Source: Thermodesulfobacteriota bacterium (GTDB taxonomy: Bacteria; Desulfobacterota; Desulfomonilia; UBA1062). Taken from it: 64,000 nt of DNA. Where the stretch lies: contig DAITOA010000001.1 of assembly GCA_036834365.1 (NCBI GenBank), positions 88,926-152,925 on the forward strand, read 5' to 3'. Both the position numbers and the translations under genes were made by a program. Shown piece after piece: positions 1,431-64,000 of this stretch. The notes below the pieces were generated by a model, which saw only the letters and a list, made by a program, of their open reading frames with translations, was not told where the DNA came from and ran no database searches. Each line of letters begins with the position of its first letter. Within the stretch, counting starts at the first letter, position 1.

Positions 1431-1593
1431 CCTGGGCATGAGGATGCAAGGTCGAACATCGCCAGGGGTGATAATCCGATAGGTTGTTCCGGAAAGTACT
1501 CTTCCGAACTGACGTGTATGCAGCTATGGTTTTGCTCTGATCACCCCTGATGCTTGTGCCGATTACTTCAATCATGTACATTCCCCATCACGT

Positions 1594-4304: not shown

Positions 4305-4483
4305 GGGTTTCACCCAAGGGTAAATGTTTCTACCCTCTTCATCGGCCTTGTGCTAAGGGAAAAACGGAATTTTCAGTGCCATGGACTTTCCCAAGACAAG
4401 CCCATCGTCCTGACGAGGTAGGAGAGAAGAATCAACCGTCTTATACCCGTTTGAGAACGTTGAATGATGAGCAACGGTAAAGG

Positions 4484-5852: not shown

Positions 5853-5863
5853 AGGTTCCTCTC

Positions 5864-7321: not shown

Positions 7322-7328
7322 AAGAAGG

Positions 7329-43675: not shown

Positions 43676-44374
43676 CTACCGGACCATGCACCTGCCCACC
43701 AGGGATTGAAGCTCTGTCACGAGCGGTTCAAGATCCTCGTCAGGCATGGATGCCTGCCCCTCGTAAGCCTTCTCCACGTGTTTCGACGGTATGAATTTCT
43801 GGAGTATATACAGGGAGGCACCCTCGATCATCCTGCCGATAGCCCTTACGTCATCCGGCTTCAGGAGGGTTTCCGGAAGGGTCGTCCGGAACTCGTGGGG
43901 GATGGAGGAGGCCCTGATGAGGTTGATACTGTCCCGTATATCGGTGATGTTCACGAGGGAACCTGTAACGAGAGCGTATTTCTCCCAGGGTGCCTTGATG
44001 TCCATGGCGAGGTAATCGGGAATGCCTTTGCCGATGGCTTCCCGCAGTATCTGCGGCCTTGAACCGTTGGTGTCGAGCTTCACGAGAAATCCCATGGACT
44101 TGATGCGCTCCATGAAGGGTATGAGATCGGCCTGCAGCGTTGGTTCACCTCCCGTGACAACCACGGCGTCGAGTTTGCCTTTCCTCCTGTCGAGATAGGA
44201 GAACAGATCATCCTGGCGGATGGTGCCACAGTATCGCTCAGGGACCACGAGTTCCGGGTTGTGGCAGTAGGGACACCGGAAATTGCATCCGCGGGTGAAT
44301 ACCACGGCGCTGATCCTGCCGGGATAGTCGATGAAGGATGTCTTCTGCACATAGGCCACGTTCATACCCTGCAT
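43676..44374 (-). CDS. nrdG: Anaerobic ribonucleoside-triphosphate reductase activating protein (radical SAM)
   Basis: 'ISAVVFTRGCNFRCPYCHNPEL' is the NrdG CxxxCxxC radical SAM motif. Start chosen at the ATG at 44374 (MQGMNV..), with AGGAG 5 nt upstream. Confidence 0.85.
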   Translation of the reverse strand: MQGMNVAYVQKTSFIDYPGRISAVVFTRGCNFRCPYCHNPELVVPERYCGTIRQDDLFSYLDRRKGKLDAVVVTGGEPTLQADLIPFMERIKSMGFLVKLDTNGSRPQILREAIGKGIPDYLAMDIKAPWEKYALVTGSLVNITDIRDSINLIRASSIPHEFRTTLPETLLKPDDVRAIGRMIEGASLYILQKFIPSKHVEKAYEGQASMPDEDLEPLVTELQSLVGRCMVR

Positions 44375-44690
44375 AGAATCTCCTGGCAGATCATAAGGCA
44401 TAATGGGAGGAACGTGCCTTATGAATAAGATGTCTGTCAATGCATTCTTCTATCATGAACTCATGAATGGCTTGATTTATCGGGCAATGCCGTCCATAAT
44501 GATAAACTGTGATATGATCGATTTGATGGGCGTCCACCGGTGAATTGCTGTCAAGATTCCTTTTCAAGAAATTTTGCTCTTTGGTCGATTGGGTAACCAT
44601 GGGGACACCCAGCATGTGGTCGGGTGCTGCATGCCTAAGGACATGCGACAGATCCCGGAAGCATCTGTGAAAGGAGCGAGAGGACTCATC

Positions 44691-49480: not shown

Positions 49481-49693
49481 AATTCCCCCCTTCTAAAGTT
49501 CTTCAGATGTAGTGAAACATCTCGTGTTGTCCGGGAATATGCCTTGCAGCGGGATCGTGGAAACCATGCCGTCCCCGTTGATCCGTATGTCATGTCTGTA
49601 TACCATTTCCTTGCATTCAACAACTCATTTCTCCTGGAATCCGAGGAAGGTGAATCGTTGCGATGTATCGGGAAATTCACTATAGTGCTCACT

Positions 49694-50527
49694 ATGAACA
49701 ACGCCTTGAGCATCGATGTAGAGGAGTATTTCCAGATCCATGTGCTCTCCGGTATCATCCGTCAGGATCAGTGGAATCTCATGCCTTCGTTCGTGGAGGA
49801 CAATACCCTGAGGATCCTCGATCTTCTCGATAAGCACGGCATCAAGGCGACCTTTTTCTGCCTCGGGTGGATCGCGGAGCGTCATGGAGACCTCATCCGT
49901 CGGATGCATGAGAAGGGCCACGAGATCGCCTGCCACGGGTTCGCCCACCAGGTCATCTACGGGCAGGACCCTGCACGGTTCAAGGAAGACGTGACCAGGG
50001 CCAAGCAGGTCCTGGAAGACGCCACGGGCGTCCCGGTCATCGGCTACCGGGCACCCACCTACTCCATCACGGACAAGACCCTGTGGGCCATTAAGATCCT
50101 TGAGGATGCGGGATTCCTCTACGACTCGAGCATCTTTCCCATCTACCATGACAACTACGGCATCCCGGATGCCCCCCGGTTCCCCCACCGGCTCCAGGGG
50201 AGCACCCTGGTGGAGTTCCCCATCTCCACGCTCAAGATCGGACCCGTGAACATCCCCGTCTCAGGAGGGGGGTATTTCCGGCTGCTGCCCTACACACTCA
50301 CGAGGCTGGGGCTGAAGGAGGTCATGTCCGGCGGGAGGCCCTTCGTCTTCTACATCCATCCCTGGGAACTCAATCCCGATACCCCGCGGGTACCGGGCAT
50401 GCCAGTATTATCACGGTTCCGGACTTACATCGGCATCCGTTCCGCCAGGGCCAGGTTCGAGCGGCTCATCTCGGATTTCCGATTCGCCCCGATCCGGGAT
50501 GTCCTTGCTGAGCTCGGGCTCCTGTGA
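49694..50527 (+). CDS. Polysaccharide deacetylase family protein (DUF3473 type, resembling the PEP-CTERM/exosortase-locus subfamily)
   Basis: 'MNNALSIDVEEYFQ..' N-terminus and NodB-like 'HGIKATFFCLGWIAERHGDLIRRMHEKGHEIACHGFAHQ', with a DUF3473-like C-terminal region. Start chosen at the ATG at 49694. Confidence 0.6.
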   Translation: MNNALSIDVEEYFQIHVLSGIIRQDQWNLMPSFVEDNTLRILDLLDKHGIKATFFCLGWIAERHGDLIRRMHEKGHEIACHGFAHQVIYGQDPARFKEDVTRAKQVLEDATGVPVIGYRAPTYSITDKTLWAIKILEDAGFLYDSSIFPIYHDNYGIPDAPRFPHRLQGSTLVEFPISTLKIGPVNIPVSGGGYFRLLPYTLTRLGLKEVMSGGRPFVFYIHPWELNPDTPRVPGMPVLSRFRTYIGIRSARARFERLISDFRFAPIRDVLAELGLL

Positions 50528-50584
50528 GGAGGGTCCGGATACGTCATTCTTGACATCTTGTTTCGAAGCAAAGAAAAGACAGAA

Positions 50585-50659
50585 CCTGCTCAGGGAAGTA
50601 CATCTCGCGTCATTCGTTGAAAATCACGCTGTTTCGCGAGATGTACTTCCCTGAGCAGG
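50585..50659. repeat. Palindromic terminator-like element, copy B (25-bp perfect stem, 25-nt loop)
   Basis: CCTGCTCAGGGAAGTACATCTCGCG / loop tcattcgttgaaaatcacgctgttt / CGCGAGATGTACTTCCCTGAGCAGG. Lies between convergent genes with T-rich flanks on both sides. Confidence 0.9.
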
Positions 50660-50726
50660 CCATGTTTTCTCTTGTACAGCGTCCCAAGCAGAAGCTCAGA
50701 TGACTTGGCGCCGTGTCCATCTCCCT

Positions 50727-52715
50727 TCAGACACTCTTGAGGGCCTCGCGGGCCTCATCCCTGGTCTCGTAGATGTGCGGGGCGAGCCTCCGCTTGTTCA
50801 GCGCCTCCCCCAGCTTCATCCTGAGGAAGGTGTTGGTGGTGTAGCGGGTCACGCCGGAATAGAACTTCTTCACCACCCTGCGCACCATGGCCGTATAGTC
50901 GTCCACGAGCTCGGGGAGTATGTCGAAGTTGTCGTAGTTCACGATGGTATACACCTTCTTCCCCAGCGGCGAGCAGATGCCGGTGACCATGTCCTCGATG
51001 GCCTTGATGTCTCTGCGGCTCCTGATCTTGTGTCCCTCGAAGTTCACGAAGAAGAGGTTCTCCTCCGCATCATAGGTGAGCCGTTCCGCCAGGCTCAGCT
51101 CGGTCATGTCGTCCCGCAGGGACATGGGCGCCGTCCGGAAGATGCGCTCGTCCATGGTGCGGGGCGTTCCCCTGATGACCGGGGTGAAGTCCATGCGTGA
51201 GAGGACATCGCGTTCGATGTCGATGCCCGGAGCGACCTCGATGAGCTCGAGGCCGTCCCTTCCCAGGGAGAACACGCACCGCTCGGTGATGTAGAAGACC
51301 GGCTGGTTCTTCATCAGGGCATAGCGCCCGCTGAAGGTGACCTGCTCCACCTGGTGGAGGAACTTCCTCCCGGTGCCTTCCTGGTCGATGACGAGCCCCC
51401 GGTCTTTGACCGAGACCCTGAGCCCGCCCGCGGTGAAGGTCCCCGTGAAGACGACCTTCCTGGCGTTCTGGCTGATGTTGATGAACCCCCCGCAGCCGGC
51501 GAGCCGCTCTCCGAACCTGCTCACGTTGGTGTTGCCTTCCCGGTCCGCCTGGGCCAGCCCCAGGAAGCAGCAGTCCAGCCCGCCGCCGTCGTAGAAGTCG
51601 AACTGGTTCGGCTGGTCGATGATGGCCTCGGGGTTTGTGGAGGCCCCGAAGCTTAAGCCGCCGGCAGGCATGCCCCCGATGGTGCCGGGCTCTGCGGTCA
51701 GGGTGATGTACTCCAGAATCCGCTCCTCGTTGGCCACCCTGGCCACCCCTTCGGGCATGCCGATGCCCAGGTTGATGATGCTGTTGCCCTTGAGCTCCAT
51801 GGCGGCCCTGCGGGCGATGATCTTGCGCGCCCCCATCTCCATGGGAGGCAGCGACTGCATGGGTATCTTGACCTCGGCGCTGTAGGCCGGGTTCGACCGC
51901 TCGGCGAACGTCGTCCAGTGGTTCTCGGGCCGGGAGACCACCACGCAGTCCACCAGGATGCCCGGGATTCTGACCTGACGTGCACTGAGGGTCCCTCTCT
52001 CGGCGACACGCTCCACCTGTGCGATGACGAAGCCTCCCGAGTTTTTGGCCGCCATGGCCATGGACAGCGTCTCGATGGTGAGCGCCTCCTTCTCCATGGT
52101 GATGTTGCCGTCGGTATCGGCGGTGGTGCCCCGGATAACGGCCACGTTGATGGGGAAGGTCCTGTAGGCGAGATACTCAGTCCCGTCGAAGGAGACGAGC
52201 TCCACCAGGTCCTCGGTGGTGACCTCGTTCACCTTGCCCCCGCCGAAACGGGGATCGATGTAGGTGTACAGGCCCACGGTGGTGATGGTCCGGGGCTTGT
52301 GTGCCGCGATGTCCCGGAACATGTGGGAGATCACGCCCTGGGGGAGGTTGTAGGCCTCGATCCTGTTCTCCATGGCAAGCCTGCCCAGCTTCGGGGCAAG
52401 ACCCCAGTGGCCTCCCACGACCCGTTTCACCAGTCCCTCGTGGGCCAGGTGGTTGAGTCCACGATCCTTGCCGTCGCCCTGCCCTGCGGCATAGACCAGG
52501 GCAAGGTTCCTCGGCCTGCCCGTGGCAAGGAAGTGCTCCTCCAGGCTTGACAGGATCTCCTCGGGGACGCCGATGCCCACGAACCCTCCGGTAGCCACCG
52601 TGTCGCCGTCATGGATGGCCTGGACCGCCTCCTGGGCGGATACGACCTTGCCTCTGCGCATCCGCGAGGGCGGCCAGGTGGAGAGCATGGGGTGCAACGA
52701 TCCGCGTTTCGCCAT
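50727..52715 (-). CDS. Family I CoA-transferase with fused alpha/beta subunits (acyl-CoA:acetate/3-ketoacid CoA-transferase-like)
   Basis: 662 aa. '[31 protein letters not shown]' (subunit A-like) followed by a subunit B-like region. Confidence 0.65.
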
Positions 52716-52810
52716 GGCAGACCTCCCTTCAATGAATCCTGGGAAAAATGAACAATATACACATTAATAGGGAATTGTACCCCTGCATCAAGGGGATCGG
52801 CAGCCCTCGG

Positions 52811-53509
52811 TTACTTTTTCCCCCGCAATTCGTTCATGAGGTCCATCTGAACCTCCTGGATCTCCACGAGGCGCTGCCACTGGTGGGAGATGAGGTGATC
52901 GAGCTTCTGGTGCAGGTGGCGTATCTCCAGCTCGGCCTTCAGGTTCACCTGGTAATCGTGCATTGCACGGTCCCGGTCCCGTGCCTCCTGGCGATTCTGA
53001 CTCATCATGATGATGGGCGCCTGGATAGCGGCGAGGCATGAGAGGACCAGATTCAGGAGGATATAGGGGTACGGATCGAAGGGGCGAGCGGCAATGAGAA
53101 AAGAATTGACGGCCATCCAGCACACGATGACCAGAAAGAAGATGGTAATGAAGGTCCAGCTCCCACCGAAATCCGCGATCCGGTCCGCAAGGCGATCCCC
53201 GAGATTCAAGTGGGATTCAAAGTCAATGGTGGGATTTCTGGAAAGGATATCCTGCTCCTTCAGGCTTTCGAGCACCTCGCGCTCTATCTCCGTAATTTCC
53301 CCTTTCTCGGTTTCAAGGAGCTCTTCCACATACCTGTTGCGGTATCTTTCCAGGTCCCTGGTGCAGATCCATCCGTTCTCGTCCCAGGCGCCATGATCCC
53401 GCCTGATCAATTCTCCAAGAACGGGCCTGACTATGATACCGGGTCTCAGCTCTGCATGTGCCGTGGCGCCGCAGATCTGACAGACATGACTCTGTTCGGT
53501 TTTCTTCAC
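52811..53509 (-). CDS. DUF1003-family membrane protein with N-terminal Cys-rich segment
   Basis: 'FGGSWTFITIFFLVIVCWMAVN' matches the DUF1003 core; N-terminus 'CQICGATAHAE..WICTRD'. Terminal gene of the arn-containing operon. Confidence 0.5.
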   Translation of the reverse strand: MKKTEQSHVCQICGATAHAELRPGIIVRPVLGELIRRDHGAWDENGWICTRDLERYRNRYVEELLETEKGEITEIEREVLESLKEQDILSRNPTIDFESHLNLGDRLADRIADFGGSWTFITIFFLVIVCWMAVNSFLIAARPFDPYPYILLNLVLSCLAAIQAPIIMMSQNRQEARDRDRAMHDYQVNLKAELEIRHLHQKLDHLISHQWQRLVEIQEVQMDLMNELRGKK

Positions 53510-53573
53510 CTCATACCCCCTCGTTTGTTTTCCGCGTATACTCGCCTGCAGTCCCGCCGGTTCCCGGAATTGA

Positions 53574-54158
53574 TTATGAAGGATGAACGGATGTATTCCC
53601 CGTACGCCTCTTCATGATAATCGAATGCAGCACCCACACCACCATGCCGGTCATGATGATGAACCCTGCCAGGAGTGCCTCATACTTTTTGATGTGCTGG
53701 AGGACAAGTCCGGCCGCATGGCCGAAGACATAACCAAGACAGGCTATGACAAGGGCCCAGGCAAATCCGCCGACACAGTTGTATGCCATGAACTTCCACG
53801 GAGAAATGCCGCTTGCCCCGATGAGAAACGGGGTGACGGTGCGTATCCCGTAGATGAATCTGAAGAGGAGGATCACCGCCGTCTGGTTGCGCCGCATCAG
53901 GGAGAGGACACGCGTCGATTTGGCCTTCCAGGAGCGATGGGAATCGAGATAGGCGATCCCCTTTTTTCTTCCCATGAAGAAATAGAGCTGGTCTCCGGCA
54001 AAGGTGCCCAGGAATGCAGACAGGACGACGAAGGAGAACGAGAGGTAGCCCTGGTGAGAAAGGAACCCGGCCATCACCAGGACGGTCTCACCCTCGAAGA
54101 AGGTTCCCACGAGGATGATCGCATACCCGTAATGGATGATGAACGTCTCGATACCCAT
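53574..54158 (-). CDS. DedA-family membrane protein
   Basis: 'LVGTFFEGETVLVMAGFLSHQGYLS..FLGTFAGDQLYFFMGRKKG' is the DedA signature (E..G and G.R motifs). Confidence 0.85.
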   Translation of the reverse strand: MGIETFIIHYGYAIILVGTFFEGETVLVMAGFLSHQGYLSFSFVVLSAFLGTFAGDQLYFFMGRKKGIAYLDSHRSWKAKSTRVLSLMRRNQTAVILLFRFIYGIRTVTPFLIGASGISPWKFMAYNCVGGFAWALVIACLGYVFGHAAGLVLQHIKKYEALLAGFIIMTGMVVWVLHSIIMKRRTGNTSVHPS

Positions 54159-54234
54159 AATGATTCAGTGCATGATCCCGTCAAAACCGGCGCAGTATTC
54201 CGGGATGATACCATGAGGTACGCCCTGGATGAAC

Positions 54235-55824
54235 TCAAATCTCGTCATTGATGCGATAGATAAAGTACACCTTCCTCTCGGTCTTGATCGTCTCTTGCAA
54301 GTGCTGATTCCGGAAGCGGTCTTCGAGGTTTTTCTCCGACAGCAGGATGAAGGCGTCATCCCTGCCGGCCATGACGCTTAGCTGCTCTTCCTTCAGCGGT
54401 CTGACGGCCCTGCCTGAGGCCCAGACGATCTCGGGGGGGAGGTCTCCCAGGGAGTAGAAGGCCTTTTCCCTGTACTCCGGGACGGTTCTGAGGTGCATGA
54501 ACGGAGCCGCCTCATCCTGTCCGAGCCGTTCAGCGACCACCGGCGGGAGGAGGACGATGCCGAGGCAGATGCCAGCAACGGCGATCAGGAAGCTCCTCTC
54601 GGTGCGCTGTCTCCAATACAAGTAAATGAGCACCCCGCCGGTACACGCAAGGAGAACGGCCCCGGGCAGAGCAATCAGCCTGTTCCGGGAGAAGTGGACG
54701 AGCACCCCGGCACCGGCGATCAATGCCGTTCCGGTCACGATGGAGAAGGCCCCGTACACGATCTTCCTGACAGTCCCCGATGCCGCCTTGAGATACCCGA
54801 TCGATAGTGCCGAGACGACGGCACCCGGCACGACGGCAGGCAGGAGGTAACGGACCTTTTTCTCCGGGAAGACCGTTATGAAGATGATGGTGAGGATGAA
54901 CCAGAAGACGAAGAGCTTCTCCCCGGGCTTCCAGTCTTTTTTGATAAAGGGAGCCGCGAGGCCGTGGAAGAGAAAGAAGACCCAGACGCCCACGATCTCC
55001 TGGAGGTGGAGCAGGTAGTACCACAGGGGCTCGGTATGGTTCGTGAACCACCCCGTGGATTCCCTCGATGCCACCGCAGCCGCGGCGTGGGGGGTGTTCA
55101 GGTACACATACACCGGCCATGCAGCCGATATGACCGCACAGAAGAGAAAGGACCACAGGAGCCCCCACCGGGTATCACGCAGGTCCTTCAGGCCGAAGGC
55201 GATGATGTAGCTGATCAGGAAGGGCGCCAGCATGACCCAGAAGGGCACGGGTCCTTTGCTGTAGAAGGCGAAGGCCATAAGCACCGAAAACAGGACAAGG
55301 TAGAAAGGCCTGCCCCGCTTGCTCAGGAAGGTCTCGGCCAGCGCCCAGACCGCGCCGGTCATGAACGAGATGGAAAAGATGTCCCAGGCGTTCTTGCGGG
55401 CCGAGAGCATGAACAGGTAGCTCGTGGCGAGGACGAGCAGCGAGGTCAGGGCAATGTCCCTGTCTCCGGTGATCCGCCTCACAAGGAGGTAGGTGAAAAC
55501 AGCCAGAAGCAGAGCCGATATGCCCGACGGGATCCTGTTCACTGTGAGGTCGGCGTCGGTGCCCGCCCACTGCATGAACACGGCGGTGATCCACGTGGGC
55601 AGGGGCGGTTTGGCGATCCTGAGCTCACCGTTCATGGTGGGCAGCAGCCAGGATCCTCCCGCGGTCATTTCGCGCGCCGTAATGAAGTTCCTGGCCTCCA
55701 TGACGTTTACGGGAACGATGTTGCCGTAGAGGAAGATGGTGATGAAGAGGACGACAGCGACGAACAGTGCCCCTTTGTTTATCCGGGGACAGGGCGGTTT
55801 CAGAAGGATTCCCCTGTCGAACAT
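54235..55824 (-). CDS. arnT: ArnT-like undecaprenyl-phosphate-Ara4N transferase (GT83/GT39-type), copy 1
   Basis: 'FITAREMTAGGSWLLPTMNGELRIAKPPLPTWITAVFMQWAGT' aligns with the E. coli ArnT N-terminal region. About 13 TM helices. Start chosen at the ATG at 55824. Confidence 0.7.
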   Translation of the reverse strand: MFDRGILLKPPCPRINKGALFVAVVLFITIFLYGNIVPVNVMEARNFITAREMTAGGSWLLPTMNGELRIAKPPLPTWITAVFMQWAGTDADLTVNRIPSGISALLLAVFTYLLVRRITGDRDIALTSLLVLATSYLFMLSARKNAWDIFSISFMTGAVWALAETFLSKRGRPFYLVLFSVLMAFAFYSKGPVPFWVMLAPFLISYIIAFGLKDLRDTRWGLLWSFLFCAVISAAWPVYVYLNTPHAAAAVASRESTGWFTNHTEPLWYYLLHLQEIVGVWVFFLFHGLAAPFIKKDWKPGEKLFVFWFILTIIFITVFPEKKVRYLLPAVVPGAVVSALSIGYLKAASGTVRKIVYGAFSIVTGTALIAGAGVLVHFSRNRLIALPGAVLLACTGGVLIYLYWRQRTERSFLIAVAGICLGIVLLPPVVAERLGQDEAAPFMHLRTVPEYREKAFYSLGDLPPEIVWASGRAVRPLKEEQLSVMAGRDDAFILLSEKNLEDRFRNQHLQETIKTERKVYFIYRINDEI

Positions 55825-55825
55825 G

Positions 55826-56530
55826 TCACTCGGCTCCGGAGTTTCTGACAGTGGCGGGAAACCATTTTCCAAGCAGTTTCCTGGAAAAAACGGACATGAC
55901 CAGGAGTGCAGTGGCAAGGGCGATCTGCTGGAGGTTTCCCTTGACCCCGCCGCTGCCGAACGTGGCGAAGACAGCTGCCAGGGGGATGAACCCGAGGAGG
56001 GATCCGAGCATGAAATCCCGGAAGGACACCCTGCAGCTCCCGCAGAGCAGGCTCATGAGCGTCGAGTTGGAAAAGGGGAAGAGCCTCCCGTAGAGCACCC
56101 ACCAGAAGGCGTTCTCCTGGAATCGTGTCTGCCAGATCCTCAAGGTGCCGCCCACTCTCCGCTCCACCACCCCGGCAAGCATGGACTTCCCGGCGCCGTA
56201 GAGGATCGAGGCCCCCAGAAGAGATGCGAAGAGGGACAGGAGCGTGCCCATAGCCGCGCCGTAGATGATCCCGCCCACGGCGCTCGCCCAGAGGCGGGGA
56301 ATACCGGCAGCGATGAGCCCTCCCCAGATGAGGGTAAAGAGGAAGGCGGAGAACAGAAGGCCGGGGCCGCCATGGCCGCCCTTGAGGGTTTCCCGCATGC
56401 CCTGGATATCGAAGAGATATTCCCGGACCCCGGGACTTCCCAGGAGAACCGCCATGGCAGTGAAAAGGACCGCCAGGAAGACAACGCGGCCGATGTCCTT
56501 GGCCAGCTGCTTATTGATTGTCAGACCCAT
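55826..56530 (-). CDS. TVP38/TMEM64 (DedA-related) family membrane protein
   Basis: 234 aa and multi-pass. 'GIPRLWASAVGGIIYGAAMGTLLSLFASLLGASILYGAGK'. Confidence 0.5.
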   Translation of the reverse strand: MGLTINKQLAKDIGRVVFLAVLFTAMAVLLGSPGVREYLFDIQGMRETLKGGHGGPGLLFSAFLFTLIWGGLIAAGIPRLWASAVGGIIYGAAMGTLLSLFASLLGASILYGAGKSMLAGVVERRVGGTLRIWQTRFQENAFWWVLYGRLFPFSNSTLMSLLCGSCRVSFRDFMLGSLLGFIPLAAVFATFGSGGVKGNLQQIALATALLVMSVFSRKLLGKWFPATVRNSGAE

Positions 56531-57266
56531 TCTTCTCCGTCACCGTGTACCTCAGAGCCCTCTTCCTCAGCCAGAAGACACCTGCCAGGTCGGCAAGGCC
56601 CACCCAGAGCCTGCTGTTGATCCCGCCGCCGTACTTGCTCGTGCCGTGTTCCCGCACCCGGTGGTTCACCGGGGTCTCCGCCACGGTGAACCCGGCCATG
56701 ATGAACAGGGCCGGGAAGAACCGGTGGGCGTTCCTGAAGAACCGGATGCGCTCTAGGCATGTGCGGCGGAACACGCGCACCGAGCACCCCACGTCCGTGA
56801 TGTTGTCCTTGAGCACCGAGGAGCGTACCGTATTTGCGATCCTGCTGGACATGCGGCGTACAAAATTGTCGGCCCGTCTCCGCCTGATGCCGCACATCAT
56901 GTCCACGCCCCGCTTGTCCATCTCCTCGAACAGGTGGAGGATGTCACGGGGGTCGTTCTGTCCGTCGCCGTCCAGGGTGGCTATGTACTCGCCCTGTGCC
57001 GCACGGAACCCGGCCTCCAGGGCGGCGGACTGGCCGCTGTTGGGATGGAGATGTATGGCCCGGAAGTTATCATGTGTCCGTGCAAGACCGTCCATGATCG
57101 CGGATGTCCCGTCCGTGGATCCGTCGTCCACCATGACGAGTTCCCATGCAAGGCTCCCGTGGGAGGACAGGATCTCCAGTACTTCCTTGCAGACGGCCTC
57201 CAGGGACTCGGCCTCGTTGTAGAACGGGATGACGATGCTCAAGACCATGGGTTTCACTGTCATCAT
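56511..57266 (-). CDS. GT2 polyprenyl-phosphate sugar transferase (second ArnC/DPM1-like glycosyltransferase)
   Basis: 'MVLSIVIPFYNEAESLEAVCKEVLEIL..ELVMVDDGSTDGTS' and a DxD-type 'IATLDGDGQNDP'. About 250 aa with no C-terminal TM helices. Start at the ATG at 57266, with GGAGA upstream. Confidence 0.7.
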   Translation of the reverse strand: MMTVKPMVLSIVIPFYNEAESLEAVCKEVLEILSSHGSLAWELVMVDDGSTDGTSAIMDGLARTHDNFRAIHLHPNSGQSAALEAGFRAAQGEYIATLDGDGQNDPRDILHLFEEMDKRGVDMMCGIRRRRADNFVRRMSSRIANTVRSSVLKDNITDVGCSVRVFRRTCLERIRFFRNAHRFFPALFIMAGFTVAETPVNHRVREHGTSKYGGGINSRLWVGLADLAGVFWLRKRALRYTVTEKNGSDNQ

Positions 57267-57321
57267 AGTCTTCTCCATATATCCGATCGCCATGCATGAC
57301 AATACACCATATTCGTCAGGC

Positions 57322-58176
57322 TTAGACCGCACACTTGAAGGCGCGGCCCGGCAGCAGACCCATGGTGAGAGGCCGGACAGGGAGAGTGCCGCGGTCAAGG
57401 GACAGGGCGATTTCTTCCAGCGTACGGATCCGATAGCCCAGCCTTACGGCAAGGTTCAGGATCTGTTCGAACACCTCGCTGCACATCATGCCCTCGACCT
57501 CTGCATGAACGGGCAGGACCTGGGGAAAAGGGTCGGATGACCGCTGCTTCAGGGAGTCCATGACACCCTCCGCTCCCACCTCCTCGATGCAGGGCAGGTT
57601 GGAGGGGATTTCCAGCATGCCGTTCTCTAAAAAGATGAAAGGGGAACGCGCCCGGGTGCAGCTGAGATATGCCAGGTCGAAACGTGCGGCGATCGCGAGG
57701 GAGCGTTCATCCATCATCCAGCTGGGTGCGCCGAAGGCCTTGGGTTTCTTGCCTGTAACATGGATGTATGCAGCCACCATCTTTTGAAACCATGTCTCAA
57801 TGGACCGCCGGGTCATGAGAAAGAGCCAGTCCTGCCATAGACGGTGGTCCCAGGCATGGCAGGCGACCTCGTGACCTTTATGCAGGAGGTCCCTGATCGT
57901 GTCCGGGAAGGCAAGCCCGATCATGGGGGCCTTCAGGACCGTGCCGTACAGTGCGGTCTTCCACCCGTAGAGCCCCGGGGCATTGGTGCGGATCATCTTT
58001 TTTAAAAAGGCCGGACGGAGGAGCTGGAGTACGGCCAGTCCGGACCGGTCGGGGCCGAAGCTGATGAAAAAGCTCGCCCTCAGCCCGTGTTCGTCAAGGG
58101 TGCGGGTAATGAGGGGCACACCCTCCTTCATGCCTCTGAAGGTGTCCACGTCGACCTTGAGGATCAGATCAGGCAT
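57322..58176 (-). CDS. arnD: 4-deoxy-4-formamido-L-arabinose-phosphoundecaprenol deformylase
   Basis: 'LILKVDVDTFRGMKEGVPLITRTLDEHGLRASFFISFGPDRSGL..GHEVACHAWDHRLWQ' is closely similar to E. coli ArnD. ATG at 58176 overlaps the upstream stop. Confidence 0.85.
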   Translation of the reverse strand: MPDLILKVDVDTFRGMKEGVPLITRTLDEHGLRASFFISFGPDRSGLAVLQLLRPAFLKKMIRTNAPGLYGWKTALYGTVLKAPMIGLAFPDTIRDLLHKGHEVACHAWDHRLWQDWLFLMTRRSIETWFQKMVAAYIHVTGKKPKAFGAPSWMMDERSLAIAARFDLAYLSCTRARSPFIFLENGMLEIPSNLPCIEEVGAEGVMDSLKQRSSDPFPQVLPVHAEVEGMMCSEVFEQILNLAVRLGYRIRTLEEIALSLDRGTLPVRPLTMGLLPGRAFKCAV

Positions 58177-59200
58177 CGGTTGAGGCTGTCTCCTCCAGGA
58201 AGCTGTCCAGTGTCCGCTTGAGGGCGTCGTCAAGGGGCACCTTCGGAGCCCACCCAAGCATTTCCTGTGCGTTTTGAATGGAAGGGACCCGGGTCTGGAT
58301 GTCCTGGTACCCCTTACCGTAGAATTCGCCGGACGACTTGTACAGGATCTCCGAATACGATCCGTCTCCGCTGTGCATAGGATGCCGCCTGAACAGGTCC
58401 AGGAGTTTGTAGGCCAGGTCCTTGATGGTGATGTTGTTGGCGGGATTCCCGATGTTGAAGATCTGCTTGCTGGCACGGCCGCTCTCGTTGTGCAGGATCT
58501 TCATGAGAGCTTCCATGCCGTCGTCGATGTAGGTGAAGGACCTGCTCTGCATGCCTCCGTCCACCAGTGCGATGGGTGATCTGAATACCATGGATGCAAT
58601 GAACTGGGTGACCACGCGCGAAGAACCCTCCTTGGCCGTCTCCAGGGAATCGAGCCTCGGGCCGATCCAGTTGAATGGCCTGATCAGGGTGAAGTCGAGC
58701 TCGCCCCGCTCTCCGTAGGCCCAGATGACCCGGTCCAGAAGCTGCTTGGAGCACGAGTAGATCCAACGCTGCATGGGGATCGGACCCAGAATGAGGGGAG
58801 AAGTATATTCGTCGAAGCTCTCGTCCGTGCACATGCCGTAGACCTCCGAGGTGGAGGGGAAGATCACCCGCTTGCCGTACTTCACGCACTGCCTGATGAT
58901 CCGCAGGTTCTCCTCGAAGTCCAGCTCGAAGACGCTCAGGGGCCGCTCCACATAGGTCTTGGGGGTGGCAATGGCGACCAGGGGCAGGACCACGTCGCAT
59001 TTCTTGATGTGATACTCGATCCATTCCTTGTTGATGGCGATATCGCCTTCTATGTAGTGGAACCGCGGGTCGCCCATGACGCCCTTGAGCTTCTGGTCGC
59101 CCAGGTCCATACCGTAGACGTGCCAGTCCGAGTCTCTCATGATCCGTTCGCTCAGGTGCGAACCGATGAAACCGTTCACGCCCAGGATGAGCACATTCAT
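58169..59200 (-). CDS. arnA: UDP-glucuronate oxidative decarboxylase domain of ArnA, encoded as a separate gene
   Basis: 'MNVLILGVNGFIGSHLSERIMRDSDWHVYGMD..KCDVVLPLVAIATP..FELDFEENLRIIRQCVKYGKRVIFPSTSEVYGMC' is collinear with the E. coli ArnA C-terminal domain. Confidence 0.88.
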   Translation of the reverse strand: MNVLILGVNGFIGSHLSERIMRDSDWHVYGMDLGDQKLKGVMGDPRFHYIEGDIAINKEWIEYHIKKCDVVLPLVAIATPKTYVERPLSVFELDFEENLRIIRQCVKYGKRVIFPSTSEVYGMCTDESFDEYTSPLILGPIPMQRWIYSCSKQLLDRVIWAYGERGELDFTLIRPFNWIGPRLDSLETAKEGSSRVVTQFIASMVFRSPIALVDGGMQSRSFTYIDDGMEALMKILHNESGRASKQIFNIGNPANNITIKDLAYKLLDLFRRHPMHSGDGSYSEILYKSSGEFYGKGYQDIQTRVPSIQNAQEMLGWAPKVPLDDALKRTLDSFLEETASTDA

Positions 59201-60111
59201 TGCAGGTTCTCCTTTTCGTGTTCCTTGAAATATGAACAGAGTCCAGTGCCGGTGAATACACGTCCGTTTATCTCGATCTCCAAGGGTCTCAGAGTGCCTT
59301 CCCCGGTCCCGATGAACACGTCATTACCCTTGATCACGATGCTGCCGGGTTTCAGTGAGGATCCTGAGGCCGGGACGGCCCGCCAGATAAAGACCATGTC
59401 ATCCCCGATGAATCCGAAGGCCCCGGGATACGGCCGGGTGACGGCCCGGATGAGGTTGTAGATCTCCTCGGCGGGCCTGTCCCATGAGATCCGTCCGTCT
59501 TCGGGCTTTCTGCCGCCGAAGTACGACCCCTTGGAGAGGTCCTGCGGTTCTTTGGGGATGTCGCCGCTGATCATGCGGGGGAGGATCTCCGCGAGCATGG
59601 CATCCGCAGCCCGTTCCAGCTTTCCGAAGAGCGTGAGAGCGGTATCCTCATGGGTGATCTCCACCCGCTTCTGGGCCGTAACAGGACCGGCATCGGGCTT
59701 TTCCACCATCTCGTGGAGCGTCACGCCGGTGGCCTTTTCCCCTTTGAGGATGACCCAGTTCACCGGGCACCGGCCGCGGTAGGAGGGCAGCAGTGAGCCA
59801 TGGAGATTGTAGGCGCCTTGCTTCGGAATGGAAAGAATCGCGGGCTTGAGCATGAAGCGGTAATAGAAGCTGAAGATGAAATCGGGCTGAGCGCCTTTGA
59901 CCTTCTCGACCCACCCATGCCGGTTGGGGTTTTCCGGACACACGCACGGGATGTCGAGCTCACGGCAGAGCGACGGCACGGATGCGAACCATACGTTCTC
60001 GTCAGGGTCGTCCTCGTGGGAGAACACGAGCGGTATCTCCATGCCGGCATCGAGAAGCCTCCTGATGCCGATGACACCCATGTTGTGGTACGCGAAGACC
60101 ACCGCCCTCAC
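59197..60111 (-). CDS. arnA: UDP-Ara4N formyltransferase domain of ArnA, encoded as a separate gene
   Basis: 'VRAVVFAYHNMGVIGIRRLLDAG..DFIFSFYYRFML..YNLHGSLLPSYRGRCPVNWVILKGEKATGVTLHEMVEKPDAG' is collinear with the E. coli ArnA N-terminal domain. GTG start overlaps the upstream stop; its own stop overlaps the ATG of the decarboxylase gene. Confidence 0.85.
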   Translation of the reverse strand: MRAVVFAYHNMGVIGIRRLLDAGMEIPLVFSHEDDPDENVWFASVPSLCRELDIPCVCPENPNRHGWVEKVKGAQPDFIFSFYYRFMLKPAILSIPKQGAYNLHGSLLPSYRGRCPVNWVILKGEKATGVTLHEMVEKPDAGPVTAQKRVEITHEDTALTLFGKLERAADAMLAEILPRMISGDIPKEPQDLSKGSYFGGRKPEDGRISWDRPAEEIYNLIRAVTRPYPGAFGFIGDDMVFIWRAVPASGSSLKPGSIVIKGNDVFIGTGEGTLRPLEIEINGRVFTGTGLCSYFKEHEKENLQ

Positions 60112-61037
60112 GGGTAGATCCTCCTGATGGTGTACGGCGGACGCTTCTTCACCTCGCGGTAGATCCTGCCCACGTACTCCCCCATGACCCCGAAGGCCAG
60201 GAACTGGGCCCCGATGAAGAAGAACAGCACGGCGAACAGGGTAAAGATGCCCTGTGCCGCCCATTCGGCGCCGAAGGCCAGCCGCGCCACGGCCAGGAAG
60301 GCGCCGAAGCCTATGCCGAGAAAGGCAAGTACGAAGCCGGCATAGAGCATGAACTTCAGCGGAAATTCGGAAAAGGACGTAATGAGGTCGAAATGCAGGG
60401 AGATGAGACTGCCAAGGGAGTACTTGGACTCACCGGCATAACGCTCCTCGTGGCCTACGTCGATCTCGGCGATGTCCTTGGCGAAGCTCACCGCCAGGGC
60501 CGGGATGAAGGTGGAGTGCTCGTGGCTCGAAAGCATGTATTCGACCACGTGCCTCCGGTAGGCCCTGAGCATGCATCCCCAGTCATTGAGGTGTACACCC
60601 GTGATGCGGCGGGTCATGGCATTGACCAGGCGGCTGGCCGACTTGCGGAAGAACGAGTCCTGGCGCATCCTGCGAACCGTTCCCACCACCTCATAGGCGC
60701 CCGTCTCCATGACGTCCACCAGGCGGGGGATCTCTTCGGGCGGGTTCTGAAGGTCAGCATCGAGCGTGACTACGATATCCCCGGTGCTTGTTTCGAAGCC
60801 TGCGAACACGGCTGCATGCTGGCCGTAGTTCCGGGAGAGCTCCACCACCTTCACCCGCCCGGAGGCATGGCTGCGCAGGATCTCCAGCGACCCGTCGCGG
60901 CTGCCGTCATCCACGAGGATCACCTCGTAATCCCTTTGCAGGCCTTCCATGACCGGCAGCAGACGTTCGAAGAGCCTTCCGATAACCTGATCCTCATTGT
61001 ATACCGGGATCACCACCGATACCTTTGCCTGGTTCAT
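60108..61037 (-). CDS. arnC: Undecaprenyl-phosphate 4-deoxy-4-formamido-L-arabinose transferase
   Basis: 'VSVVIPVYNEDQVIGRLFERL..YEVILVDDGS..LDADLQNPPEEIPRLV..WGCMLRAYRRHVVEYML..GESKYS' is near-collinear with E. coli ArnC, including two C-terminal TM helices. Confidence 0.9.
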   Translation of the reverse strand: MNQAKVSVVIPVYNEDQVIGRLFERLLPVMEGLQRDYEVILVDDGSRDGSLEILRSHASGRVKVVELSRNYGQHAAVFAGFETSTGDIVVTLDADLQNPPEEIPRLVDVMETGAYEVVGTVRRMRQDSFFRKSASRLVNAMTRRITGVHLNDWGCMLRAYRRHVVEYMLSSHEHSTFIPALAVSFAKDIAEIDVGHEERYAGESKYSLGSLISLHFDLITSFSEFPLKFMLYAGFVLAFLGIGFGAFLAVARLAFGAEWAAQGIFTLFAVLFFFIGAQFLAFGVMGEYVGRIYREVKKRPPYTIRRIYP

Positions 61038-61039
61038 GT

Positions 61040-61966
61040 CTATAGGGCCTCCTGCGTCCTCGTATAGAGCGATTTTCTGTTGAGGATTAAAAAAATGCTT
61101 CCTATGGCCACCGACAGCCACAGGGTGAACACGCGGGCCATGATGGCGGCCATCCCCGCATCCGGGGCCGGCATACCGGCATGGATGAGCAGTCCCAGAA
61201 GGCTCGCATCGGTCACCACGAGCCCGCCCGGGATGAAGGAAACCGCCCCGACCAGGGTGGAAAACCCGAAGATGACCGTGGCATCGATGATCCCGATTTC
61301 GTGACCAAGCCCCCGGGCTATGAGGTGAAGGGCGACGCCCTCGCTCGTCCAGGCTGCCAGGGTGATGACGAGGGAGATGACAAGCACCTTCGGCCCGAAA
61401 AGGGCGAACATGTCATCGAGGGCCCCTTTGAGCTCATGCGCCCGGGCGGCCAGGAACGGGGAGCGGGAAGCAAGATCAAGGAGACGCTCGGGAATCGGCC
61501 TTGCCAGCATGAGCATGGGCAGGCAGCACAGGAGCAGGGTCCAGCCGGAGCCTCCCAGAACGCTCACCCCCAGCAGGGAGATGACGCTCAGACCCACGAG
61601 GTCCATGAGGAGCTCGGCGATCACGACGGGGGAACCGGCGATGAGGGTCCTGCCTGTTGCCGTCTTGAGGAACTGCGCCTTGAGGAGAAAACCCGCCTTG
61701 CCCGGTGTGGCGCTCATGGACAGCCCTGTCAGGAATATCCCGAGGCTCCTGGCGATCTTCACCTGGAAGCCTGTTTTTTTCAGGTACAGGTCCCACCGGA
61801 AGAACTTGATCAGGTCGTTGCAGAACCCGAACACGGCTATGGCTGGTACCAGGGTGAGGGGGAAGGCCTTCAGGGTGGGCAGGGCCTTTCTCACATCGCC
61901 CAGCATGACGATTGCCGAGTAGGTTATGAAGGCGAGGATAAGGCCGAAGACTATGCCCTTTTTCAC
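61040..61966 (-). CDS. UPF0104 / lysylphosphatidylglycerol-synthase TM-region-like membrane protein (putative flippase-like)
   Basis: 308 aa and polytopic. 'SLGIFLTGLSMSATPGKAGFLLKAQFLKTATG'. Sits where arnE/arnF would be expected. Confidence 0.5.
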   Translation of the reverse strand: MKKGIVFGLILAFITYSAIVMLGDVRKALPTLKAFPLTLVPAIAVFGFCNDLIKFFRWDLYLKKTGFQVKIARSLGIFLTGLSMSATPGKAGFLLKAQFLKTATGRTLIAGSPVVIAELLMDLVGLSVISLLGVSVLGGSGWTLLLCCLPMLMLARPIPERLLDLASRSPFLAARAHELKGALDDMFALFGPKVLVISLVITLAAWTSEGVALHLIARGLGHEIGIIDATVIFGFSTLVGAVSFIPGGLVVTDASLLGLLIHAGMPAPDAGMAAIMARVFTLWLSVAIGSIFLILNRKSLYTRTQEAL

Positions 61967-63084
61967 CCACAGATCTCCCTCAGGGCAAGGATCACCCTGT
62001 CTATCTGCGAGTCTTCCATGGATGGGTAGAGTGGTATGCTCAGGATGCTCTCCGCAGCCGCTTCGGTTTCCGGGAGACTCACCGTGCCGAGATGTTCCCT
62101 GACGTAGCTCAGGGCATGGCATGCAGGGAAGTGCAGGCCATACCCGATGTTACGTTCCGCAAGCTCCTGCATGAGGGCGGCCCGGCCTATTGACCGCGCC
62201 TTGACCACGAAGAGGTGCCATGAATGCACATGTGCATAGGTGGGGATGCCCGGCAGGTCCAGGCCCTTGAGGTTGGACAGACCATCGAGGTAGCGTTTCG
62301 CGATCCGGGTCCTCTTTGCATTTATCTCCCCGATCTTGGCGAGCTGAACGATGCCCAGGGCGGCCTGCATGTCCGTGAGGTTGTACTTGAAGCCAGGCTC
62401 CGCTATGTCGTAGCTCGGGTCCGATGCCTTGCCGTAGCGTTTCCATGCGTCGCGTTCGATGCCGTGGAACTTCATGAGCTTCAGCTTCTTCATGAGATCT
62501 TCGGGACCGCCGGTGATCATCCCCCCCTCCCCTGTGGTGATGTTCTTGATGGGGTGAAAGGAGTAGATCGCCGGGTTCCTGGCGCCGATATGGGCGCCCT
62601 TGTAGAAGGTCCCCACGGCATGGGCCGCATCTTCGATGAGGGGTATCCCCCTGCAGGCATCCTCGATGGCGTCCAGATCCGCCGGGGCGCCGGCGAAGTG
62701 CACGGGGATGACCGCTTTCGTGTTTTTCGTGACGAGCCGCGCAATCTCATCAGGACGCACGAGCAGGGTGTCGTAGTCGATATCGGCAAAGACAGGGCGT
62801 GCCCCGGCGATCATGATCTGGTTCGCTGTGGAGGCAAAGGTCATGGACGGAGTGATCACCTCATCGCCGGGACCGATGTGAAGGGCCCTGAGCAGCAGGT
62901 GAAGCCCCGCGGTGCCGGAGGCAAGTGCCAGGGCGTGGGGCGATCCCACATAGGCGGCGAAGCGCTGTTCGAACTCGGCGCACTTCGGGCCGGTGGTTAT
63001 CCATCCGGACTTCAGGACCTCAGCGACGGCATCGATCTCCTCGCTGCCGATGTAAGGCCTGCTCATGGGTATGAAGTCATTCAT
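61963..63084 (-). CDS. arnB: UDP-4-amino-4-deoxy-L-arabinose--oxoglutarate aminotransferase
   Basis: DegT/DnrJ/EryC1 fold, collinear with E. coli ArnB: 'SRPYIGSEEIDAVAEVLKSGWITTGPKCAEFEQRF..GDEVITPSMTF..VIPVHFAGAPADLDAI..AIYSFHPIKNIT..KYNLTDMQAALG'. Confidence 0.88.
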   Translation of the reverse strand: MNDFIPMSRPYIGSEEIDAVAEVLKSGWITTGPKCAEFEQRFAAYVGSPHALALASGTAGLHLLLRALHIGPGDEVITPSMTFASTANQIMIAGARPVFADIDYDTLLVRPDEIARLVTKNTKAVIPVHFAGAPADLDAIEDACRGIPLIEDAAHAVGTFYKGAHIGARNPAIYSFHPIKNITTGEGGMITGGPEDLMKKLKLMKFHGIERDAWKRYGKASDPSYDIAEPGFKYNLTDMQAALGIVQLAKIGEINAKRTRIAKRYLDGLSNLKGLDLPGIPTYAHVHSWHLFVVKARSIGRAALMQELAERNIGYGLHFPACHALSYVREHLGTVSLPETEAAAESILSIPLYPSMEDSQIDRVILALREICG

Positions 63085-64000
63085 TCGTTCTTGTCTCCCT
63101 GTGGTTCGGACGTGTCCTTGATGTTCCAGAGTTCGGTGGGCCGCTTATCATAGCCTGTAGTCCGTATCAGCCTGAACCCTCTGGACTGGAGAAGTTTCTG
63201 CACGTCCGAGCCGTCCCTGCCGTTGAAATACAGGACATATGGTGTACTCCCCGCATTGACCATCCCCTCGAACCGCTTCCAGTCCGGAATGGATTCCGCC
63301 CTGAATCCCCCGTAAAAGGAGCTGAAGGCCAGGGCCGTCTCGCTCAGGTTGTACCCCATGACCCGCTCGTTTCCCACAATGGTGCCTGCATACCGGAAAA
63401 AGGGGCGATAACTTTTGATGACATCCACCTGGTGGAAAAGAACCGGGGACCAGGTAAGCAGCAGCAGAGCCCAACAGGCAGCCAGTCTTTGGGGCAGGGT
63501 GAACATGCGCGACCCGAGCATGGTTCCCAGGAAGAGCGCCGACAGGAGAGATGCCAGCAGTGTCATCTGCCATGACCCGCCGAGCTTCGCATGAAAAGCG
63601 ATGGGGACCATGATGAATACGAGGCCGGTGAATGCCCCGGGCAACCAGGTGGCCCACCGCCGTTCTACCGGCCGTACATCCTCGGGCATGCGTGACAGCC
63701 ATACCCCCACGACGGCGGCCATGGCCGGGTACAGGGGAAGGATGTAGAGCCCGCGTTTCGTGGAGGCGATGCTCAGGAGTATGAATCCGCCGAAGAACCA
63801 GCTGTAAAAGAACCGGAGGCGTGTATCGGGCCTCCTCAGGAAGACGGTCGCCGGGATCAGCAGGAGCGACCAGGGCAGCCCCTCGGTGAAGATGACCTGC
63901 AGATAATAGTAAAGGGGACGCACGTGGCCGCCCTGGTAAACGCCCACGTCCATGAACCTGCCCAGGTTGTTGAACAGGAAGAAGGTGAAAAGGAAATCCG
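63081..64000 (-). CDS. ArnT-like (GT83/GT39) polytopic glycosyltransferase, copy 2; 5' end beyond window
   Basis: Frame is open to position 64000 ('DFLFTFFLFNNLGRFMDVGVYQGG..'). Hydrophobic C-terminal half has the typical GT39/GT83 architecture. First gene of the arn operon as seen in this window. Confidence 0.65.
   Translation of the reverse strand, partial: DFLFTFFLFNNLGRFMDVGVYQGGHVRPLYYYLQVIFTEGLPWSLLLIPATVFLRRPDTRLRFFYSWFFGGFILLSIASTKRGLYILPLYPAMAAVVGVWLSRMPEDVRPVERRWATWLPGAFTGLVFIMVPIAFHAKLGGSWQMTLLASLLSALFLGTMLGSRMFTLPQRLAACWALLLLTWSPVLFHQVDVIKSYRPFFRYAGTIVGNERVMGYNLSETALAFSSFYGGFRAESIPDWKRFEGMVNAGSTPYVLYFNGRDGSDVQKLLQSRGFRLIRTTGYDKRPTELWNIKDTSEPQGDKNE

Follow-up and report, generated by a model that had tools for sequence, protein, structure and literature searches.

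An arn operon of an uncultured Desulfobacterota lineage with an arnB-coupled UPF0104 gene and an adjoining, separable GT2-VTT-GT83 cassette

Bacteria decorate the lipid of their outer membrane with 4-amino-4-deoxy-L-arabinose (Ara4N). Resistance to polymyxin and cationic peptides arises mainly through the Ara4N pathway, the enzymes of which are well understood. To our knowledge, no protein has been proven to flip lipid-linked monosaccharides in any domain of life. We analysed an Ara4N (arn) locus at the end of a 64,000-nucleotide stretch of DNA, hereafter the window, from a Thermodesulfobacteriota bacterium (GCA_036834365.1, contig DAITOA010000001.1, positions 88,926 to 152,925). The locus is an unbroken chain of open reading frames (ORFs) on the minus strand that runs from position 52811 past the window end at 64000, with all frames intact. 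By exact-protein look-up, the identical region was found on at least six metagenome or metagenome-assembled-genome contigs, including GCA_964511985.1 and anaerobic-digester samples, and one contig identical to the locus (L001) was used to extend it past the window end. We consider it probable that the locus combines an intact arn operon of uncultured Desulfobacterota from anaerobic digesters with a second glycosylation cassette that is separable from it, and we infer the roles of the flippase, the acceptor and the second sugar.

The first operon gene, GT83a (63081..64000), runs off the window, which holds the C-terminal 305 codons of this 532-aa ArnT-family transferase of glycosyltransferase (GT) family 83; PF02366 and PF13231 match the full gene. 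A 4-nt ATGA overlap joins GT83a to arnB (61963..63084, UDP-4-keto-pentose aminotransferase, 373 aa, PF01041 388 bits), and a 4-nt GTGA overlap joins arnB to the gene of a UPF0104/LPG_synthase_TM protein (61040..61966, 308 aa, eight predicted transmembrane (TM) helices, PF03706 117.5 bits, gathering cut-off 33.4), both overlaps being read from the sequence. After a 2-nt gap comes arnC (60108..61037, 309 aa), for the transferase of 4-formamido-4-deoxy-arabinose (Ara4FN) to undecaprenyl phosphate (Und-P). It is joined by a GTGA overlap to the gene of a separate ArnA-type UDP-Ara4N formyltransferase, FT (59197..60111, 304 aa), which in turn is joined by an ATGA overlap to that of a separate ArnA-type UDP-glucuronate oxidative decarboxylase, DH (58169..59200, 343 aa). 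The DH gene overlaps arnD (57322..58176, Und-P-Ara4FN deformylase, 284 aa) by 8 nt. All these gene starts, as well as those given below, are probable starts.

A 55-nt gap separates arnD from GT2b (56511..57266), encoding an ArnC-like polyprenyl-phosphate glycosyltransferase of 251 aa (260 aa by some callers; PF00535 119.8 bits). GT2b overlaps by 20 nt the gene of a TVP38/TMEM64-type VTT-domain membrane protein (55826..56530, 234 aa, five predicted TM helices, PF09335 61.2 bits), and after a 1-nt gap follows GT83b (54235..55824), a divergent ArnT-fold GT-C transferase of 529 aa. Gaps of 76 and 64 nt precede, respectively, a DedA-family protein (53574..54158, 194 aa, PF09335 60.6 bits) and a DUF1003 membrane protein (52811..53509, 232 aa, PF06210 145.5 bits). 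The genes are tightly coupled in two blocks, GT83a through ArnD and GT2b through GT83b. The first-pass annotation of the window had listed these genes in this order on the minus strand; all of them are present, and Pfam and NCBIfam agree on every named family. The chain that it placed at 53574-64000 is there, but 53574 is the end of the DedA gene and DUF1003 lies outside that range. Its description of the operon as complete in the window did not hold, since the first gene is cut at 64000 and two further GT83 genes (GT83c and GT83d) and a response regulator-histidine kinase pair lie beyond. Scanning 52500-64000 for promoter and terminator consensus sequences gave counts no higher than those in shuffled sequences (3 versus 3.5 and 11 versus 8.1), which provides no evidence on operon boundaries, and no Rfam family matched 50000-64000 at the gathering threshold.

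The proteins of the first block were compared with those of Escherichia coli K-12. ArnB is 51% identical over its full length and keeps the pyridoxal phosphate lysine (K188, here K180). ArnC is 52% identical and matches the solved ArnC with 348 bits over its full length; the DADLQN motif and R128, R137, S141 and R205, taken from the residue list in PMC12690121, are all present, and two C-terminal TM helices are predicted. FT is 45% identical to ArnA residues 1-274, with N102, H104 and D140 kept, and DH is 58% identical to ArnA residues 318-657, with T432, S433, E434, Y463, K467 and R619 kept. Both pass models of the split type, FT that of NF005414 (383 bits, cut-off 316) and DH that of NF008872 for UDP-4-keto-pentose/UDP-xylose synthase (550 bits, cut-off 294). 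ArnD is 34% identical over residues 1-283, and its DVDT and HAWDH motifs (NodB-type DxD and HxxxH) align with those of the E. coli protein. Formyltransferase and deformylase occur as a pair specifically in the Ara4N route. Because of these identities (34-58%), the collinearity, the kept catalytic residues and the presence of this pair, the pathway call is solid at the level of homology: judged by sequence, the locus is a genuine arn operon with an ordinary core in an uncultured Desulfobacterota lineage, in agreement with the earlier assignment from near-collinearity with E. coli.

Two kinds of observation weigh against this assignment. The arn models are the best NCBIfam matches of ArnB, ArnC and ArnD, yet all three proteins fall under the equivalog cut-offs (471.7 bits against 631 for ArnB and 186 against 382 for ArnD). 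In addition, the Pfam-annotated called genes of the identical contigs, which cover nearly the whole window, include no ugd, and neither does the L001 extension; its absence from the window had been noted at first pass. The same annotation shows housekeeping genes in the window, including LptF/LptG.

By homology, DH would convert UDP-glucuronate to UDP-4-keto-pentose, ArnB would aminate this to UDP-Ara4N and FT would formylate it to UDP-Ara4FN; ArnC would then load Ara4FN onto Und-P, and ArnD would deformylate the product. The chemistry, the near-same order of arnB, arnC, the arnA functions and arnD, and the translational coupling are shared with the enterobacterial arnBCADTEF (pmrHFIJKLM) operon of E. 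coli and Salmonella. The present locus differs in that ArnA is split into two proteins of the NF005414 and NF008872 types, ArnE/F are missing, arnB and arnC are separated by a UPF0104 gene, the operon has a GT83 gene ahead of arnB and not an arnT behind arnD, four GT83 paralogues are present and a second cassette is appended.

The crossing of lipid-linked monosaccharides by ArnE/F, GtrA and proteins of the small multidrug resistance (SMR) type has been assigned mostly from genetics and context (PMC11127046). We built a hidden Markov model (HMM) from nine sequences, E. coli ArnE/F and seven ArnE/F-like proteins of other arn loci, and applied it at E ≤ 1e-4. This model detects ArnE/F-like genes in about 22 other arn loci, but none of the frames of the 64-kb window or of L001 yielded such an ORF, and no EamA/SMR-type small proteins occur among the Pfam-annotated gene calls of the identical contigs over nearly the whole window. 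The absence of ArnE/F from the window, described earlier as a non-canonical trait, is therefore borne out, but the lack is not unusual in itself because it is common among environmental arn loci. The first-pass annotation had left the UPF0104 gene and the missing ArnE/F unconnected, and the comparative data make UPF0104 the leading flippase candidate.

The structural relatives of the UPF0104 protein became visible at the level of the fold. Its alignment profile had no match among PDB sequences, and MprF was recovered by fold search only: with the AlphaFold model (pLDDT, the predicted local distance difference test, 84.7), the sole significant PDB matches were six MprF structures (E 7e-6 to 3e-4, TMq 0.58-0.65), and the first non-MprF match had an E of 0.12. 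By family and fold, it is a standalone protein of the MprF-type flippase fold, and a candidate flippase for Und-P-Ara4N.

The distribution of the gene points in the same direction. Among 80 metagenome loci recovered with ArnC, UPF0104 was confined to the clade whose ArnC is 74% or more identical, with no locus having it together with an ArnE/F-like gene, and the approximately 22 loci with ArnE/F-like genes (ArnC 51-64% identical) had no UPF0104. In this clade, the order arnB-UPF0104-arnC-FT-DH-arnD was found in all four loci from species-representative genomes with enough sequence (L010, L011, L013 and L014), and a 4.3-kb contig (L012) shows arnB-UPF0104 before the contig ends. UPF0104 lies between arnB and arnC in L001, L010, L011, L013, L014 and L095. 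Even in a rearranged locus (L179 of GCA_018433775.1), where arnC-FT-DH-arnD is elsewhere in the cluster, it has stayed behind arnB, overlapping it by 4 nt. The arnB-UPF0104 pair thus occurs in seven loci, none of which has an ArnE/F-like gene. UPF0104 homologues above 50% identity form approximately 46 clusters, in which the named taxa are Deltaproteobacteria or Desulfomonilia, and the nearest homologue in species-representative genomes, among which the species itself does not occur, is 57% identical. The taxonomic placement follows the labels of the metagenome-assembled genomes ('Deltaproteobacteria bacterium'). An earlier description of UPF0104 together with arn was not found in the searchable literature. 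Context and fold together suggest that UPF0104, being clade-specific and arnB-coupled, is likely a non-orthologous replacement of ArnE/F and would carry Und-P-Ara4N to the periplasmic face.

Other results speak against this role. Many arn loci of the census, with full flanks included, lack both ArnE/F and UPF0104, and the main counter-evidence comes from a close relative (L091, ArnC 75% identical), the arn operon of which has neither. UPF0104 is therefore not obligatory, and the flippase may be encoded elsewhere. Furthermore, none of 75 loci with distant UPF0104 homologues (approximately 30% identity, from other phyla and archaea) had an arn, GT2 or GT83 neighbour; the sampled neighbours were the housekeeping genes Maf, UbiA and PHP. 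We thus rejected a general linkage of UPF0104 to polyprenyl-phosphate GT2/GT83 genes, and no general rule backs the flippase assignment.

The same observations would also suit another explanation, which we regard as possible though somewhat unlikely: UPF0104 might flip a modified phospholipid or glycolipid, such as aminoacyl-phosphatidylglycerol (aminoacyl-PG) or glucosaminyl-phosphatidylglycerol, in a co-regulated remodelling of envelope charge, while Und-P-Ara4N would be flipped by a VTT/DedA protein or an unlinked ArnE/F. All experimentally supported substrates of the MprF fold are phospholipids, GpgF and HexF are flippases by prediction only (PMC12713373), L091 has an arn operon with a VTT protein and without UPF0104, and the distant homologues lack arn or GT2 neighbours. 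However, for such a product the locus has neither an aminoacyl-PG synthase nor a GT4 or lipid deacetylase as partner. The start/stop overlap of UPF0104 with arnB in the rearranged locus, as well as the mutually exclusive distribution of UPF0104 and ArnE/F-like genes, also favours the replacement of ArnE/F over a phospholipid substrate.

A similar logic might operate in the gpgSDF operon of Pseudomonas aeruginosa and the hexSDF operon of Clostridioides difficile. These synthase-deacetylase-flippase operons make cationic glycolipids, and GpgF and HexF are standalone UPF0104/COG0392 proteins predicted to flip aminosugar lipids (PMC12713373). In both cases, as for ArnC-ArnD-UPF0104, an N-acylated aminosugar lipid is made, de-N-acylated at the cytoplasmic face and then presumably handed to UPF0104. 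Those operons use phosphatidylglycerol or a glycolipid as the lipid and a GT4 enzyme as the synthase, whereas here they are Und-P and a GT2 enzyme; the flippase role is predicted in all of them. The UPF0104 protein of the window scores 33.5 bits with the GpgF model, for which the cut-off is 320.

Next, we consider which enzymes could transfer Ara4N. Within the window, the two ArnT-like GT83 genes and two GT2 genes counted at first pass are present, GT83b being recognised by its fold, but the full locus has four GT83 genes, GT83a and GT83b in the window and GT83c and GT83d just outside. Classing the duplicated transferases by HMM, as had been suggested, gave PF02366/PF13231 in GT83a, PF13231 in GT83b and PF00535 in GT2b. 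On the identical contigs, the order upstream of the operon is the full 532-aa GT83a, a divergently transcribed 547-aa GT83c with an ArnT_C domain, a Metallophos protein, a 241-aa uncharacterised protein and an operon beyond 64000 in which GT83d is combined with an OmpR-type response regulator and a histidine kinase. None of the four reaches the cut-off (567 bits) of the NCBIfam model of E. coli ArnT, with scores of 230.7 for GT83c, 158.5 for GT83d, 127.3 for GT83a and 61.4 for GT83b. With the solved ArnT of Cupriavidus metallidurans (CmArnT), the scores are 213.7 bits for GT83c, 75.8 for GT83d and 75.7 for GT83a (5EZM), and GT83b has no match.

We mapped the residues of CmArnT listed in PMC8306577 onto these proteins. 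GT83c keeps D55, R58, Y59, E84, K85, K203, R270 and Y345; GT83a keeps D55, R58, E84, D158, K203, R270 and Y345, with K85 changed to Q and Y59 to V. GT83d has E84A. Judged by its sequence, GT83c is the closest relative of ArnT and the best ArnT candidate, although it lies outside the window, and GT83a and GT83b are more divergent ArnT paralogues. One or more ArnT-family enzymes of the locus, GT83a in the operon and the divergently transcribed GT83c, would then transfer Ara4N to lipid A or the core.

Since GT83b had no match in the PDB by sequence, a fold search was needed for it. Its model (pLDDT 90.9) matched CmArnT (5F15) in Foldseek with an E of 5e-16 and TM-scores of 0.72/0.71, and the next GT-C family followed at 6.5e-8, a lead of eight orders of magnitude. 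Together with the PF13231 score (53.7 bits, cut-off 26.1), the model indicates that GT83b is a true ArnT-fold enzyme with a PMT_2 domain and a small periplasmic C-terminal domain. A point against our overall reading is that it lacks three residues used in CmArnT (D55M with E as the next residue, E84A and R270W). Its family has an invariant signature of its own (MEARN, AKPP, SKGP, W259 and Y326), and these invariant motifs disfavour reading GT83b as a pseudogene.

The spread of GT83 sequences raises the possibility that Ara4N, the second sugar or both are attached away from the lipid A phosphates, to 3-deoxy-D-manno-octulosonic acid (Kdo) or D-glycero-D-talo-octulosonic acid (Ko) of the core, to O-antigen, to another glycan or to protein, and that the four GT83 enzymes serve different acceptors instead of the 1- and 4'-phosphates. 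In Rhizobium, several GT83 enzymes, RgtA-D, use one lipid-linked donor for different sites of lipopolysaccharide (LPS), and ArnT of Burkholderia modifies the core too. These precedents, the failure of all four GT83 proteins to reach the ArnT equivalog cut-off and the substitution of CmArnT-used residues in both in-window proteins lend some weight to such acceptors. On the other hand, GT83c has nearly all the ArnT residues as well as the ArnT_C domain, the lipid A genes PagL, a lipid A acyltransferase and PAP2 recur beside related cassettes, and LptF/LptG in the window indicate that the organism makes LPS. We therefore hold acceptors other than the lipid A phosphates to be unlikely.

The second block, GT2b-TVP38-GT83b, appears to be a system of its own. 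GT2b has ArnC as its closest solved relative (115 bits over residues 8-213), followed by GtrB (72 bits) and DPMS (48 bits). It is 32% identical to E. coli ArnC and keeps all eight catalytic and phosphate-binding residues of ArnC, but its chain stops short of the two TM helices seen in ArnC, and no TM segment is predicted for it. A GT2-VTT gene pair adjoins a GT83 gene in all seven contexts in which we observed it, always with overlapping start and stop. Four of these contexts have arn genes (L001, L091, L113 and L178), and three have none within the retrieved flanks of 8-9 kb on each side of the looked-up gene (L092, close to PagL; L176, close to a lipid A acyltransferase gene; and L177). Conversely, the clade arn operons L010 and L014 lack the GT2b-TVP38-GT83b genes. 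As the block is found with and without arn, and arn without the block, it is a separable cassette; the overlaps that had suggested a single arn operon for the whole chain are real, but the chain is better described as two units. The combination of GT2, TVP38/VTT and GT83 was not found described in the searchable literature.

In its composition the cassette resembles the Gtr-type systems (GtrB-GtrA-Gtr*; PMC11127046), which likewise bring together, in a compact and portable cassette, a polyprenyl-phosphate sugar synthase with a GT-C transferase and a small membrane protein. Here, however, the membrane partner is a TVP38/VTT protein of the DedA superfamily (PF09335) instead of a GtrA/SMR-type protein, no GtrA- or SMR-like ORF being present, and TM helices like those of GtrB and ArnC are missing from the synthase. 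Context and fold suggest that GT2b-TVP38-GT83b is a Gtr-like three-component glycosylation module. GT2b, as a TM-less ArnC-like synthase, would load a sugar on Und-P, the TVP38/VTT protein would anchor GT2b, flip the lipid-linked sugar or do both, and GT83b would move the sugar of GT2b to an acceptor in the envelope, which is probably lipid A or LPS.

Pairs of an ArnC paralogue and an ArnT paralogue bring a second sugar to lipid A or the core in Francisella (FlmF2/FlmK), Bordetella (LgmA/LgmB) and Rhizobium (RgtE/RgtA-D), systems partly summarised in PMC8306577. At the level of description, the likeness to the present locus lies in the pairing of ArnC-like and ArnT-like proteins and in GT83 enzymes that can share a donor.

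Instead of carrying a second sugar, the cassette could be a branch of the Ara4N pathway, with GT2b as a redundant second ArnC or as an enzyme using other products of the arn genes, UDP-xylose or UDP-4-keto-pentose from a bifunctional decarboxylase. The cassette contains no nucleotide-sugar genes of its own and is arn-linked in four of the seven contexts, GT2b scores higher with ArnC (115 bits) than with GtrB (72 bits) and has kept all the checked ArnC residues, and DH fits the UDP-4-keto-pentose/UDP-xylose synthase model. The occurrence of the cassette without arn genes in the retrieved flanks, as well as the identity of just 32% between GT2b and E. coli ArnC, makes such a branch doubtful. That the duplicated transferases are decaying pseudogenes or chance ORFs is most improbable and was rejected, as all ORFs are intact and tightly coupled with catalytic residues kept, the families are conserved at 45-90% identity with invariant motifs across many contigs, and both structure models (UPF0104 and GT83b) are of high confidence.

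Taken together, we tentatively propose, without giving it even odds, that UPF0104 replaces ArnE/F for Und-P-Ara4N and that the TVP38/VTT protein is a flippase or an obligate membrane subunit of the TM-less synthase, in both cases involving families not known to move polyprenyl-phosphate sugars. If this were true, MprF-type flippases would extend beyond phospholipids, and the DedA/VTT superfamily, which has members in the endoplasmic reticulum of eukaryotes, would gain a role in flipping lipid-linked monosaccharides. Some arn operons with UPF0104 where others have ArnE/F, and a GT2-VTT-GT83 cassette with a DedA-superfamily protein in the position of GtrA, can be regarded as natural experiments, and both UPF0104 and the cassette are small and clonable. 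The arnB-coupled MprF-type protein and the recurring GT2-VTT-GT83 cassette, as suggested by context and fold, are what makes the locus noteworthy. The locus also shows that Desulfobacterota of anaerobic digesters possess a putative LPS glycosylation island that is sensor-linked and holds several transferases, including four of the ArnT family, which is relevant for predicting the envelope charge and peptide resistance of uncultured anaerobes.

The DedA gene at the end of the chain probably serves the recycling of the lipid carrier. DedA-family proteins are flippases of Und-P (C55-P) that several bacteria need for Ara4N modification and for resistance to polymyxin (PMC12893004, PMC7835334, PMC8692421). 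DbcA of Burkholderia thailandensis, DkcA of Klebsiella pneumoniae, PA4029 of P. aeruginosa and UptA of Bacillus subtilis belong to this group; in those bacteria the link to Ara4N modification is functional and the gene is unlinked to arn, whereas here the link is physical, the gene lying inside the cluster, and the proteins of the window are family-level relatives. It scores 47 bits with the NCBIfam DedA model and 36.9 bits with the UptA model (cut-off 250), both far under the cut-offs, as a match at family level. Both DedA and TVP38 have the VTT domain, and the UptA model did not match TVP38. By analogy, the DedA protein of the window is a probable Und-P recycler, an already known role, which would return Und-P to the cytoplasmic face.

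In GCA_018433775.1, a 466-aa VTT (DedA)-PAP2 fusion protein is encoded between arnD and a GT83 gene (L178, 16671-18071). This Rosetta-stone fusion ties DedA proteins to the handling of undecaprenyl-(pyro)phosphate or lipid A phosphate. Two P-type cation ATPases end the same cluster (L179, 9154-12939). At two other loci (L098, 374-991; L102, 6533-7150), 205-aa PAP2 phosphatases lie directly upstream of an ArnT-like gene, which suggests coupled lipid A dephosphorylation or recycling of undecaprenyl pyrophosphate. We had also considered these 205-aa four-TM proteins as DedA-like flippases and rejected this because their sequences carry PAP2 phosphatase motifs.

The prediction of intrinsic polymyxin resistance found no support. 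The adjacent OmpR-type two-component system suggests regulated expression and is the probable regulator of the locus. In the part of L001 that contains it (766-8182, approximately 64903-72319 in window coordinates), the regulator most resembles the CopR/CzcR and PmrA types, and the Metallophos phosphoesterase is membrane-anchored. Metallophos genes occur again in the arn loci L012, L096, L113 and L131, and the 241-aa protein occurs twice in L113. Between GT83c and GT83a lies a divergent spacer of 223 nt (L001, 8183-8405) that is strongly AT-rich in a genome of approximately 59% GC and contains repeated TTACA/TTATAAT-like words. The spacer probably serves both genes as promoter region and as binding region for a regulator.

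At the other end of the locus, DUF1003 was found only on contigs of the same species and is absent from L091, L010, L014 and L178. Because both are absent from related loci, DedA and DUF1003 are lineage-specific neighbours, and DUF1003 is probably outside the system. A gene for a 662-aa CoA-transferase (50727-52715, minus strand) lies downstream of DUF1003 on that strand, 95 nt away, with no evident link to the glycosylation genes. A third VTT/DedA-family gene (231 aa, from approximately 14732 on the plus strand) lies in housekeeping surroundings, so the genome has several DedA paralogues. The LptF/LptG pair of the LPS export permease (32403-34540, minus strand) implies that the organism makes and exports LPS. 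A polysaccharide deacetylase with DUF3473, of the type associated with XrtA/PEP-CTERM (49127-50527, plus strand, of which the called gene covers the C-terminal 311 aa), adjoins an AMP-binding enzyme (47672-49480, minus strand), which suggests an exopolysaccharide system nearby that is unrelated to arn. Finally, an anaerobic ribonucleotide reductase NrdD (45157-47370, minus strand) and a radical-SAM activase (approximately 43676-44440, minus strand) fit a strict or facultative anaerobe, matching the anaerobic-digester origin of the contigs.

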